The translations under genes were made by a program, and so were the position numbers. Below, piece after piece: positions 44,803 through 51,433 of a stretch of DNA of 64,000 bases (within the stretch, counting starts at the first letter, position 1; every line of letters begins with the position of its first letter). The stretch comes from Escherichia phage vB_EcoM_KAW3E185. The notes below the pieces were generated by a model. That model saw nothing but the letters and a program-made list of their open reading frames with translations. It had not been told where the DNA came from and did no database searches. The stretch is taken from the sequence record MK373782.1; one strand, written 5' to 3'.

Positions 44803-45305
44803 TTAGAAATATTTTTTGTATGAATTGATTACATTTTGGTCTACATCATTATCAATTTGTGCAACAAGATAAGAACTGATTTCAACTTCTTGTGGGGCTG
44901 CTTGAACCAAATCAGAGTTCAAATACTCACGAATCCATGGAATAGGATGACGAGTTGATACGTCTTTAAGAGGACATGGCAGACCACAACTACGCATACG
45001 AGACACGGTAAGATAATCCACAAATTCACTTAGGATTTTAACATTTAGACCTGGAAGAGCACCATCTTTAAACAAGTGTTCAGCCCATTCTTTTTCTTGA
45101 GCGTTAACTTCCATGAAAATATCAACTGCTTCTTGTTCACACTCTTGAGCAATTTTGACCCATTCATCGCCGTCTTCGCCATCTTGTAAAGCACGAATAA
45201 TATATTGAGTGCCCTTGAGGTGGAGCTGTTCATCACGAGCAATGAACTTCATAATCTTGGCATTACCTTCCATGATTTCCATATTCTTATGGAAGTTAAA
45301 GGTAC
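44803..45305 (-). CDS. nrdB: Ribonucleotide reductase beta subunit NrdB, exon 2 (5' boundary inferred)
   Basis: Frame encodes (C)[29 protein letters not shown]..., matching the class Ia R2 block after the exon 1 end. Confidence 0.8.
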
Positions 45306-46396
45306 CGTTATGTTCGATTGAGCTCGCTAATTCTCAACCCGTTCTCTTATGAACTGCTACATATTACTATGCAGACCAGACTATATCACAATCCCAGAGG
45401 GATTCTCCCCATTTCGAGTCGCTTGACCCTACGTCCGAAGACTAGTCGTTGAACCTTGCTTTGCAATTGTCGCCGTGCCATCGTTTATATGTTGATGGTG
45501 ATAAATCTTTCTTATCACAATATGGACAATTCAATTGAATTCTATTTGGATTTAATTTACATCTGTCATTATGTTTTAGATAAAATCCAGGACCTTTACC
45601 AATGTGACCGCAGAAATCACATGTGATTTCTTTTTGTGCAGGATGGGTCCCGTTCTTAACCATTTCTAATGTTTTTGCTGATGTTCTTTTCTTATGGTCT
45701 TCTGACAAGAAATGATGTGAACCGTCATTTACCCGTTTTGATTGAGTTTCTGACTGCATTTTACCACCGCAAAATACATGAGTACCTTCTTTTATAGCTG
45801 CAATATTGCGTTCTTTAACTTTTGCAATATGCTCAGCTTGTTGAAAATTATGTATACCTAATGCAACTCTATTTAAATTAGATTTACGCTGTATTTCACC
45901 GTCTAAAAGATGAAATGTACCATTTTCTATCTTAGATTTAATAGAGGCAATATTTTTAGCTCGTACTTCAGGGATATTAAAAATCTGGATTTCTCTAGAT
46001 TTTGCGGCTTTAGAAGCTAATTCAGAAATTTCTTCAGGAGAATATTTCATTCTAAGCTTTATAGCATGACAAGCCTGGTAATCTTTTTGAGCTAAATGTA
46101 TATCATAATGTTCCTGTATAGAAAGGCACATCAAATTATCTAAATCATTATTTTCACGGTTACCGTCTTTATGATGGATTTCGTATGTTCTTCCATCAGA
46201 ATCTTTAGGTATAGGTCCGTTAGCATCTATCCAAATTTTTCTATAGTTCAATTGTGCATCCTCTTAAAAGTATAATCATATTTATATTATACTAATTAAA
46301 GGTGCAAGCAAAACCTTGGCTGCTAGTTTTCCTATAAAGGACTTTCCAGCAATTAAAGGAGTTTTCGATAAACGTTACCGTTTAAAGGCGCATTTT
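45306..46396 (-). mobile_element. Group I intron in nrdB carrying an intact HNH homing endonuclease ORF (boundaries inferred, ~1091 nt)
   Basis: nrdB reading frame interrupted; exon 1 ends in U, inferred intron ends in G; joining restores [12 protein letters not shown]...MEGNAK colinear with bacterial NrdB. Confidence 0.7.
45442..46251 (-). CDS. I-TevIII: Intron-encoded HNH homing endonuclease (I-TevIII-like, full length)
   Basis: 269 aa; HNH motif EIHHKDGNRENNDLDNLMCLSIQEHYDIH; C-terminal Cys pairs. Confidence 0.8.
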   Translation of the reverse strand: MNYRKIWIDANGPIPKDSDGRTYEIHHKDGNRENNDLDNLMCLSIQEHYDIHLAQKDYQACHAIKLRMKYSPEEISELASKAAKSREIQIFNIPEVRAKNIASIKSKIENGTFHLLDGEIQRKSNLNRVALGIHNFQQAEHIAKVKERNIAAIKEGTHVFCGGKMQSETQSKRVNDGSHHFLSEDHKKRTSAKTLEMVKNGTHPAQKEITCDFCGHIGKGPGFYLKHNDRCKLNPNRIQLNCPYCDKKDLSPSTYKRWHGDNCKARFND

Positions 46397-47072
46397 ACGC
46401 AAAAGATACATAAAAACGAATAGCTTCTAAGGCATTAATAACGTGTAAACAGAGGTAAAGAGACTTCATTAAAGCACGTTTAGCTTCGGCTTCTTGTTTA
46501 ATAGCTCGGTTTAAACGAAAGTCGGCATCAGGAGATTCTTTAGCTAGTTCTACAAATTCTTTAGCGTTTTCCCAATAACGAGCTTTAACCAGAACATCAT
46601 CATAATATCGTCCGATAGATTCGGCACGCTTCATAATAGCTTCATCTAATACAATCTCATCAAACACCTTCGATGGATCTGTATAAAGATTTCGCATAAT
46701 ATGAGTATATGAACGAGAGTGAATAGTTTCACTGAAAGTCCATGTAGCAACCCATGTATCTAATGAAGGGTCTGAAAGCAATGACATAAGTACCGCAGAT
46801 GGTGCTCTACCTTGGATAGAATCTAATAATGATTGATACTTAAGGTTGTTGGTAAAGATGTCCTGTTGGAACTGTGGAAGCTTATTAAACTGGGCCGAAT
46901 CCAACATCAAGTTTACCTCTTCGGGGCGCCAGAAAAAACTGATCTGCCGCTCAATGAGTTCTTCAAATACTCGATGTCGTTGAATATCATATCGAGCTAA
47001 ACCTAATCCAGAACCAAAGAACATCGGTTCATTCAAAACATCGACTTGTTGTGTGTTAAAAACTGTACTCAT
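46397..47072 (-). CDS. nrdB: Ribonucleotide reductase beta subunit NrdB, exon 1 (3' boundary inferred)
   Basis: Ferritin-like R2 N-terminal region ending ...ALEAIRFYVSFA. Confidence 0.8.
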
Positions 47073-47767
47073 TTAGAATCCTTAAATTTACATTTATCAT
47101 AATGCCATCTTAAAGCATTGCCTTTATTAACTTTCTTACCACAGTGCGGGCAAGGTGGATACTCAGTCCTTTGTTTAGTCTTCAAAGAAATTAAATCACG
47201 CGTTTCTTTGCTATGAGGAACATCTCTTGTAGGAGAAATTGTACCATACATAGGGTTAAGCACACCAACTTTAGCAGAAGATATGTTCTTTTTAGCTTCC
47301 TCTGATTTGGGCTTTCTCATCTTTTTCTTAGTTTCTTCGCTTTTAGCCCTTCCTTTGGTTGCCGCCGATATTTTGTGTTTGGTTTCTTCTGTTAAACGCA
47401 GACCTGTTTTCGCTTTTGATATTTTCAGTCTCGTTTCTTCAGAAATGACCGTACCTTTGCGAAATTGTGAATTTAACTTCTTTGCATGGGCATATATTTT
47501 AGAATGAACTTTATAATGACGTTTCTTAGTTCCTTTCATATTGCACATCATGAAAAATGCGAATATAACAGATTTTACCGGATAAATCTTTGATAAAATA
47601 GCATGCGCTATAAAATGTTCTCTAGCTGTTAATTCAACTAAATTTTCCTTATCATCAGTACCTCCCATACATCTAGGTAAGATATGATGATTCTCTTTAT
47701 ACCCTGATAAAGGTTCCCGAGCCTGAGCTCGGGAAATTAGGTCGTTATAGATTTTTTGATAATTCAT
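47069..47767 (-). CDS. mobE: Free-standing HNH homing endonuclease (MobE-like, between nrdA and nrdB)
   Basis: 232 aa; HNH motif HHILPRCMGGTDDKENLVELTAREHFIAH; position. Confidence 0.75.
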   Translation of the reverse strand: MNYQKIYNDLISRAQAREPLSGYKENHHILPRCMGGTDDKENLVELTAREHFIAHAILSKIYPVKSVIFAFFMMCNMKGTKKRHYKVHSKIYAHAKKLNSQFRKGTVISEETRLKISKAKTGLRLTEETKHKISAATKGRAKSEETKKKMRKPKSEEAKKNISSAKVGVLNPMYGTISPTRDVPHSKETRDLISLKTKQRTEYPPCPHCGKKVNKGNALRWHYDKCKFKDSK

Positions 47768-50572: not shown

Positions 50573-51433
50573 TTATACCGCCATTTTAGCTTTGATAGTT
50601 GGATGAGATTCGTAATTTTTAAGAACGAAATCAGAATGTGTCATCGTTCCAGTAACCCAGTCCACTTGGATTTTTGTAGGCCAATTCTCAAAATTACTAG
50701 GCCAATTAATTTCAAGAGAACACAACTCTTTAGGTTCACGACGAAGAACTTCTTTGCATTGTTCTACATGATTGCTGTAGATATGCGTATTGCCGCCTGA
50801 GAACACTAAATCACCTGGGATAAGGTTACACATCTTCGCTACAATATGCGTCAAGGCAGCGTACGAGGCAATGTTGAACGGCAGGCCCAAGAAAACATCT
50901 ACACTGCGTTGATACCATTGTAAATCAAGATGCCCATTACGCACATTAAATTGATAGAACATATGACAAGGAGGAAGAGCCATTTGGTCAATTTCGGCTG
51001 GGTTCCATGCAGAAACTATTTGACGACGATCATTAGGAAGAGCTTTAATACGGTCGATAGTTTTGACCAATTGGTCTACACCACCAAAATCACGCCATTG
51101 CTTACCATAAATAGGACCAAGTTCGCCGCTATGATATCCAAGGTCTTTTGCCTGATTTTCATAGTTGTCGTCCCAAATAGTTTTACCTTGAATAAGACTA
51201 CCATGAGTACGAATACGCAAATCATTAACATTGGTAGAACCAGACATGAACCACAGTAACTCGGCAATACAAGCTTTCCATGCTAATTTCTTAGTTGTTA
51301 CTGCAGGGAATCCTTTAGTCAGATCCCAACGTAATTTAGTTCCGAACAGGGCAATAGTGCCGGTACCTGTACGGTCGTCTGTTTCGTAGCCATTTTCTAG
51401 GATATCATTAATCAGGTATTGGTATTGTTTCAT
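50573..51433 (-). CDS. td: Thymidylate synthase (uninterrupted, no intron)
   Basis: 286 aa contiguous; active-site LPPCH motif. Confidence 0.92.
   Translation of the reverse strand: MKQYQYLINDILENGYETDDRTGTGTIALFGTKLRWDLTKGFPAVTTKKLAWKACIAELLWFMSGSTNVNDLRIRTHGSLIQGKTIWDDNYENQAKDLGYHSGELGPIYGKQWRDFGGVDQLVKTIDRIKALPNDRRQIVSAWNPAEIDQMALPPCHMFYQFNVRNGHLDLQWYQRSVDVFLGLPFNIASYAALTHIVAKMCNLIPGDLVFSGGNTHIYSNHVEQCKEVLRREPKELCSLEINWPSNFENWPTKIQVDWVTGTMTHSDFVLKNYESHPTIKAKMAV

Follow-up and report, generated by a model that had tools for sequence, protein, structure and literature searches.

The window analysed here, a stretch of 64,000 nucleotides (nt) from Escherichia phage vB_EcoM_KAW3E185 (sequence record MK373782.1), carries on its minus strand an nrdB gene that is interrupted between positions 46396 and 45306 by an insert of 1091 nt. 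This insert is interpreted, with a probability of roughly 0.97, as the T-even nrdB group I (subgroup IA-type) self-splicing intron, present in its full-length mobile form and at its canonical site, and it contains an intact open reading frame (ORF) for the homing endonuclease I-TevIII. The gene order on the minus strand of the window (frd, td, nrdA, mobE, nrdB, denA, rnlA) is that of a T4-like phage (Tequatrovirus). As a feature the intron is already known: according to PMC1865063 and PMC2988022, in which the work is cited, it was Eddy & Gold (1991) who described the longer nrdB intron of phage RB3 together with the endonuclease that it encodes, and this RB3-type configuration is present in dozens of phage genomes in GenBank. 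The value of the present description is mainly annotational, and the locus illustrates known biology, including natural decay products, while raising no new question.

The nrdB split gene and its exon junction

The two coding pieces of nrdB and the insert that separates them are located as follows.

46397..47072, minus strand: nrdB exon 1, 676 nt, running from Met1 up to and including the first base of codon 226 (Cys) and ending in GCGU directly before the intron
45306..46396, minus strand: group I intron, RB3-type full-length nrdB intron, 1091 nt
44803..45305, minus strand: nrdB exon 2, 503 nt with the stop codon counted

The N-terminal part of NrdB is encoded by an ORF (46395..47072, minus strand) that terminates in RFYVSFA followed by a TAA codon. 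The Pfam profile Ribonuc_red_sm is matched by exon 1 at profile positions 9-141 and by exon 2 at profile positions 174-271. Excision of 46396..45306 (1091 nt) generates an ORF of 1179 nt for a NrdB protein of 392 amino acids (aa), in which the insertion site falls within the codon of the Cys that follows RFYVSFA. The last base of the upstream exon is U (GCGU, followed by AAAAUGCGCC) and that of the intron is G (CAUAACG, followed by GUACC), and the predicted ligated exon junction reads UUUUGCGU-GUACCUUU. In-frame junctions shifted by +1 or -1 were also considered; in these the exon would end in A or G and the junction codon would encode Tyr or Gly, and they are excluded by homology and by the rule of an exon-terminal U and an intron-terminal G (U/G rule).

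The spliced protein of 392 aa aligns with Escherichia coli NrdB over residues 3-388 (E=5e-127) and straight across the junction, where the junction Cys corresponds to Cys214 of the E. coli protein (index 215 when the chain is one residue longer at its N-terminus). The junction stretch comprises 24 residues versus 23 in E. coli, and a gap of 1 residue is placed by HMMER at 6-10 residues into exon 2. Judged from the phage alleles compared, this extra residue is a feature of the lineage, present in intronless phage alleles as well, and not a boundary problem. Among phage records, 116 cover at least 80% of the in-silico spliced 300-nt query at a single place. The two intronless alleles that were read, those of vB_Eco_Geo and LZ2, show no gap across the junction and are collinear with the splice, and the uninterrupted nrdB coding sequence (CDS) of vB_Eco_Geo measures 1179 nt, equal to that of the spliced window CDS. 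Moreover, the annotation of nrdB in phage T4 joins two pieces over a span of 1765 nt, in which the same flanking anchors imply an intron of 598 nt.

A first-pass annotation of this DNA, made by a model from the letters and a list of ORFs, had proposed a group I intron at 45306-46396 with the exon-terminal U and the intron-terminal G that are expected for this class. Its coordinates proved to be exact, as the spliced frame, the joined CDS of T4 and the intronless alleles agree on them, and both terminal bases are in place. The accompanying comparison with E. coli NrdB was right about the conserved Cys and off by one in claiming the same length, because of the one-residue insertion in exon 2. 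The correct description of the gene is a single spliced nrdB, join(47072..46397, 45305..44803), on the minus strand. As a separate observation on annotation practice, many deposited genomes give this locus as two NrdB CDSs together with a 'hypothetical protein' or a 'homing endonuclease', and not as a joined CDS.

Identity, distribution and fold of the intron

The insert is identical at 1091 of 1091 positions to the introns of Shigella phage JK45 (MK962757) and Escherichia phage vB_EcoM_G2469 (MK327934), and a BLAST search returned an intron in vb_GEC_SH_GT that is likewise identical over 1091 nt. Compared with the nrdB intron of RB3, 1090 of the 1091 positions are the same. The comparison with the T4 and RB3 nrdB loci that had been suggested in the first-pass annotation thus places all three introns at one site, the RB3 intron differing by 1 nt and that of T4 being a deleted form; the intron flanks (ATGTATCTTTTGCGT upstream and GTACCTTTAACT downstream) are the same in the window, T4 and RB3, which defines the same insertion nucleotide of nrdB. 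With RB3 the window shares the gene, the insertion site, the length of 1091 nt and an endonuclease gene of 269 codons with a UUG start, an HNH motif and two zinc fingers. The T4 intron shares the site, the flanking exon bases and the P1-P9.2 core, and its parts outside the ORF are 99.3% (5') and 95.6% (3') identical to those of the window. It is distinguished by a deletion of 491 nt (window 46187..45697), through which the HNH domain is lost and I-TevIII is defective; the 598 nt of the T4 intron correspond to the window intron with gaps of 491, 1 and 1 nt (1091-493=598). In the full-length copy the 491-nt deletion is flanked by the imperfect direct repeats GAAGAACATA and GAAGACCATA (window 46205..46175 and 45715..45680), which suggests that the deletion may have arisen by slippage or illegitimate recombination between these repeats.

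The intron sequence was found in 128 records of the phage collection, 84 of which carry it essentially full-length, while records of the T4 type span 55-56% of the window intron. Nearly the same intron occurs in other genera, including Mosigvirus (AV115; 97.5% identity), Dhakavirus (Bp7; 99.2%) and Gelderlandvirus (S16; 89.5%). Relative to RB3, the intron is 99.9% identical, whereas exon 1 and exon 2 are 85.4% and 77.1% identical, the nearest exon mismatches being located 50 and 23 nt from the junctions. A near-identical intron within divergent exons and in several genera appears to be the signature of a mobile element, and thereby lends indirect support to homing by I-TevIII at this locus. 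The genome nearest to the window over 24 kb is that of JK45 (98.7% identity, 96% covered), with exons that are 95.7% and 99.0% identical, and it differs from the window in having no mobE between nrdA and nrdB; no deposited record is identical to the window over 24 kb.

Several decayed introns were encountered, measuring 300 nt in Shigella phage SP21535, 420 nt in Salmonella phage SG1, and 591/592 nt in 215Ecol030PP/AV115. The intron of SP21535 equals that of the window minus 785 nt and 6 nt, and it contains no ORF. Its 785-nt deletion is consistent with a loss between two ACAATTG direct repeats; these bracket the I-TevIII ORF and are found at window 46255..46249 and 45470..45464. The 6-nt loss lies in the P6a loop, within a sequence resembling a late promoter (TATAAATA, see below).

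For the secondary structure of the intron RNA, helices P1-P6, P6a, P7 (a pseudoknot), P7.1, P7.2, P8, P9, P9.1 and P9.2 were drawn by hand, together with a hairpin upstream of the ORF. The helices are located as follows.

46388..46400, minus strand: P1, GCGU of the exon (46400..46397) base-paired to GCGC of the internal guide (46391..46388), invariant in 9 sequences
46369..46384, minus strand: P2 hairpin UAAACG-GUAA-CGUUUA with a GNRA loop, recovered in the minimum free energy (MFE) fold
46321..46361, minus strand: P3 5' strand (46361..46356); P4 (46351..46346 with 46326..46321); P5 (46341..46338 with 46333..46330)
46304..46320, minus strand: P6 5' strand GCC (46320..46318); P6a 5' strand UUGCUUGC (46311..46304)
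45379..45447, minus strand: 3' half of the catalytic core, all pairs standard in 9/9 sequences
45447..45443 (GACUA) with 45383..45379 (UAGUC), minus strand: P7, a pseudoknot relative to P3
Minus strand: P7.1 (45442..45433); P7.2 (45429..45416); P3 3' strand GGGGAG (45410..45405); P8 (45403..45391)
45306..45374, minus strand: peripheral 3' domain with P9 (45374..45357), P9.1 (45354..45341) and P9.2 (45339..45316), followed by GAACAUAACG

The pairing was counted for 81 pairs in 9 homologues from which the ORF was deleted, and controls were generated by sliding the 3' partners. Standard pairs occupied 99.3% of the cells, versus 34-42% in the slid controls. Compensatory double changes were found in 5 pairs (two in P2, one in P5, one in P9 and one in the hairpin upstream of the ORF), versus 0 in every slid control; most pairs never vary, because the 9 sequences are closely related. 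In P2 the two compensatory pairs (A-U to G-C and G-C to A-U) and one change of C-G to U.G occur in S16 and SG1, the P5 pair changes from U-A to A-U in SG1, and in P9 a G-C pair (4/9 sequences) alternates with A-U (5/9) next to a G-C to G.U change. As read from these alignments, the compensatory changes are a mark of selection on RNA structure. Furthermore, the unconstrained MFE fold of the ORF-deleted construct recovered all nested helices (P2-P6, P7.1, P7.2, P8, P9, P9.1 and P9.2; z=-2.6) and contained the wobble between the splice-site U46397 and G46391. The assignment of P3-P5 derives from the Rfam alignment of the identical SP21535 sequence, the 3' strands that complete P6 and P6a are found at 45455..45453 and 45464..45456, which loops the endonuclease ORF out of P6a, and the intron-terminal G at 45306 is kept in 10/10 homologues read.

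These data bear on the alternative that the insert does not splice, and that nrdB consists of two separately translated fragments or is a pseudogene. Such a reading could draw on the two separate NrdB CDSs annotated in JK45, G2285 and others, and on the reading frames themselves, since exon 1 stops in frame and exon 2 holds an ATG-started ORF of 159 aa. However, that ORF would be without the residues CTFNFHKN, the two-CDS annotations are the product of pipelines without intron modelling, the core is identical or nearly so to that of the T4 nrdB intron, across which the annotation joins the CDS and for which self-splicing is described (PMC2790892), and the compensatory changes reflect selection on the RNA. 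Splitting of nrdB by a non-splicing insertion is consequently considered extremely improbable, and the group I intron is retained.

Covariance-model searches agree with the intron in part, and the points that weigh against it are most conveniently taken together here. At the gathering score, Rfam returned no match in the whole window; its alignment is imprecise for P1 and the 5' splice site, with non-canonical pairs marked in P1; P1 itself counts just 4-5 bp; no convincing P10 was found that would pair the first bases of exon 2 (GUACC) with the loop of P1 (AAAAU); and one P6a pair changes from C-G to C.A in 4/9 sequences, including T4. With relaxed thresholds, the group I model RF00028 detected the 3' core of the window intron (GUUCAACGACUA, P3', P8, GAUAUAGUCU and P9) at 33.9 bits (E=1.5e-6; gathering score 50), in which the R and S elements GUUCAACGACUA and GAUAUAGUCU were aligned with high posterior probability. 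The T4 nrdB intron, used as a control, reached 35.7 bits and likewise stayed below threshold. Both introns score below the gathering threshold because the ORF (785 nt in the window) splits P6a. The ORF-less intron of SP21535, which has the same core and differs from the ORF-deleted construct of the window solely by 6 nt in the P6a loop, matched the full model at 69.1 bits (E=3.5e-16, above the gathering score of 50), and the ORF-decayed 420-nt intron of SG1 matched the full RF00028 model at 57.9 bits. Since the T4 intron fails as well and the ORF-less derivatives pass, the failure at the gathering score is not counted against the intron. The Rfam group I scan proposed as a check in the first-pass annotation thus confirmed the core, with the window itself below the gathering score and the splice boundary not precisely placed. 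The sub-threshold alignment put the 5' half of the model in the I-TevIII coding sequence (45597..45470); this placement was rejected, the true 5' core being 46396..46304. Other sub-threshold Rfam matches (rseX, ceN113 and Atu_L1; E=4.6-6.8) lie inside the ORF and were regarded as chance hits.

The Rfam alignment sets the conserved U of P1 a few bases upstream and leaves the 3' end past P9 unmodelled, which could be taken to mean that the true splice sites of the group I intron are other than 46396 and 45306. However, no sites other than 46396 and 45306 keep the frame, end the exon in a U that is held in a U.G pair, end the intron in G, make the spliced gene collinear with intronless alleles and agree with the T4-implied length of 598 nt, and different splice sites are therefore given next to no credence. 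As P1 is not precisely placed by Rfam, the exact boundaries were taken from the reading frame, from homology, from the alleles without an intron and from the U/G rule.

By analogy with T4 and RB3, the group I intron would be expected to splice itself in this phage. The nrdA-mobE-nrdB transcript would fold to the P1-P9.2 core, exogenous guanosine would attack after U46397, held in the U.G wobble of P1, and the freed exon 1 would then attack after the terminal G45306, leading to ligation of the exons and an mRNA for the 392-aa NrdB.

A minor similarity was noted in a distant phage. In Pseudoalteromonas phage pYD6-A (Schitoviridae), a stretch of 87 nt is 86.5% identical to the 3'-terminal P9.1-P9.2 region of the intron, and the match sits in an 'ATPase' gene that is annotated in two pieces and has an ORF inside it. 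Rfam gave no match at E<=0.01 for the pYD6-A locus. The similarity may point to the 3' domain of a related group I intron in this marine phage.

The I-TevIII reading frame, its putative expression control and its proposed mobility

The loop of P6a contains the I-TevIII gene and the sequences that putatively control its expression; a position mapped from the literature, outside this loop, is listed with them.

45442..46251, minus strand: gene for the homing endonuclease I-TevIII, 269 codons, with UUG as start and UAG as stop
46257..46304, minus strand: ORF expression control region, with a hairpin formed by AGUAUAAU (46293..46286) and AUUAUACU (46276..46269)
46410..46412, no strand assigned: position mapped from PMC1865063, not a feature of this intron-containing DNA

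Biochemical characterisation of I-TevIII (Robbins et al. 2007, PMC1865063) has assigned it to the HNH enzymes and has shown that it carries two zinc fingers. The product of the window gene matches Pfam HNH_3 at residues 4-48 (E=6e-13) and is identical to RB3 I-TevIII at 268 of the 269 residues, which bears out the earlier proposal of an intact 269-aa HNH ORF of the I-TevIII type, as distinct from the T4 copy without the 491 nt. The sole difference is at residue 23 (nucleotide at window position 46185), which is Tyr here and Asp in RB3. Tyr23 is common to JK45, S16, SF6, SF4 and Bp7, and Asp23 of RB3 is therefore the outlier. Residues H26, H27, N39 and H48 of the H-N-H motif are all present, as are two zinc fingers of the form CX2CX12-13HX3C, CDFCGHIGKGPGFYLKHNDRC at 211-231 and CPYCDKKDLSPSTYKRWHGDNC at 242-263 (C211/C214 and C242/C245); the roles of the HNH and zinc-finger residues are known from mutants, which for H26, H27, N39 and H48 were alanine mutants (PMC1865063). 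A Pfam match of residues 74-114 to FlgM, an anti-sigma-28 factor (26.2 bits versus a cut-off of 25), was set aside as probably compositional, the region being a helical linker rich in Lys, Ser and Ala.

The sole available start codon of the ORF is the UUG at 46251, 8 nt past AAGAGG. At its other end the ORF overlaps with the catalytic core, in that its last ~25 nt double as the P6a and P6 3' strands, J6/7 and the P7 5' strand, and its UAG stop straddles the P7/P7.1 boundary. In the control region, an outer pairing of CACCUUUAA with UUAAGAGGAUG covers the Shine-Dalgarno sequence AAGAGG (46265..46260), and the ribosome-binding site is paired in the MFE fold. The single compensatory change in this hairpin converts an A-U pair to G-C in SG1. 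The sequence TATAAATA (46286..46279), which resembles a T4 late promoter, begins with the final base of the hairpin's 5' arm and extends into the loop. A late promoter combined with sequestration of the ribosome-binding site by a hairpin is the scheme described for I-TevI, II and III (PMC2988022), and by analogy the same late-promoter use and hairpin regulation would be expected in this phage: read-through transcripts would form the hairpin that sequesters the I-TevIII ribosome-binding site, and transcripts starting from the late promoter within the hairpin would leave that site free. The introns in T4 td and nrdD (sunY) are alike in residing in a gene of nucleotide metabolism, in having the endonuclease ORF looped out, and in their control by a late promoter and a hairpin over the ribosome-binding site (PMC2988022). 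They differ in the enzymes encoded, as I-TevI and I-TevII are monomeric GIY-YIG endonucleases, whereas I-TevIII belongs to the HNH type and acts as a dimer (PMC1865063).

On the model of T4 and RB3, the P6a loop would thus supply an HNH and double-zinc-finger homing endonuclease that is active in this phage, and after its action the intron, along with part of the adjoining exon sequence, would be copied into the recipient by repair. Alternatively, the intron may splice without being autonomously mobile, with an inactive or unexpressed I-TevIII (for example through D23Y or the UUG start) and maintenance by vertical descent or by trans-homing through MobE, as in T4. The single residue that differs from RB3 lies three residues before the catalytic H26/H27, the start codon is UUG, and directly upstream there is a T4-type mobE, a gene whose product reportedly acts in trans to mobilise the defective intron of T4 (PMC2790892). 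Against this, Tyr23 is the common allele, the annotated I-TevIII CDS of RB3 also measures 810 nt and begins at the same UUG codon, every residue needed according to mutagenesis is intact, and many genomes keep the ORF full-length at >99% identity, while decayed copies delete the ORF. Loss of autonomous mobility is consequently judged unlikely, if less so than the alternatives on splicing discussed above, and the full-length mobile form of the intron remains the preferred interpretation.

Neighbouring mobE and td genes

The gap between nrdA and nrdB is filled by mobE, the stop and start codons of which overlap with the adjoining genes at both sides.

47069..47767, minus strand: mobE, free-standing HNH endonuclease gene, 232 aa, with an HNH N-terminus and NUMOD3 repeats

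The gene is of the T4 type (95% nt identity to T4T mobE), and this distinguishes the window from RB3, since the alignment with RB3 MobE is confined to the first ~105 aa (60% identity). The C-terminus of MobE, CPHCGKKVNKGNALRWHYDKC, forms a CX2CX12HX3C finger and resembles the second zinc finger of I-TevIII.

The td gene (50573..51433, minus strand) encodes a contiguous thymidylate synthase of 286 aa that matches its Pfam profile at positions 1-266 of 266. The statement in the first-pass annotation that td is intronless is thereby upheld, and because T4 has a td intron, the intron complement of the phage differs from that of T4. With respect to td, the record of G2469 carries the remark 'unable to determine exon/intron boundaries'.

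Taken together with the I-TevIII intron, these neighbours raise the idea that the phage is a natural mosaic, in which a fully active RB3-type I-TevIII intron is combined with a T4-type MobE directly upstream and with a td gene that has no intron. In such a phage nrdB would be both defended and spread by two HNH homing endonucleases that are independent of each other, and Tyr23 would be the wild-type and possibly the more active residue. The odds for this composite proposal are held to be about even; if true, it would amount to a new combination of known parts and to no new kind of element.

Finally, the differences between the window and JK45 in exon 1 are nearly all confined to 46917..47000, around codon 42 (CGG, Arg), shortly before FFWRPEE. 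The same part of exon 1 is the reported nicking target of MobE and is polymorphic between mobE-plus and mobE-minus phages (PMC2790892), and from its position the cluster of differences looks like a mobE-associated co-conversion or immunity tract.

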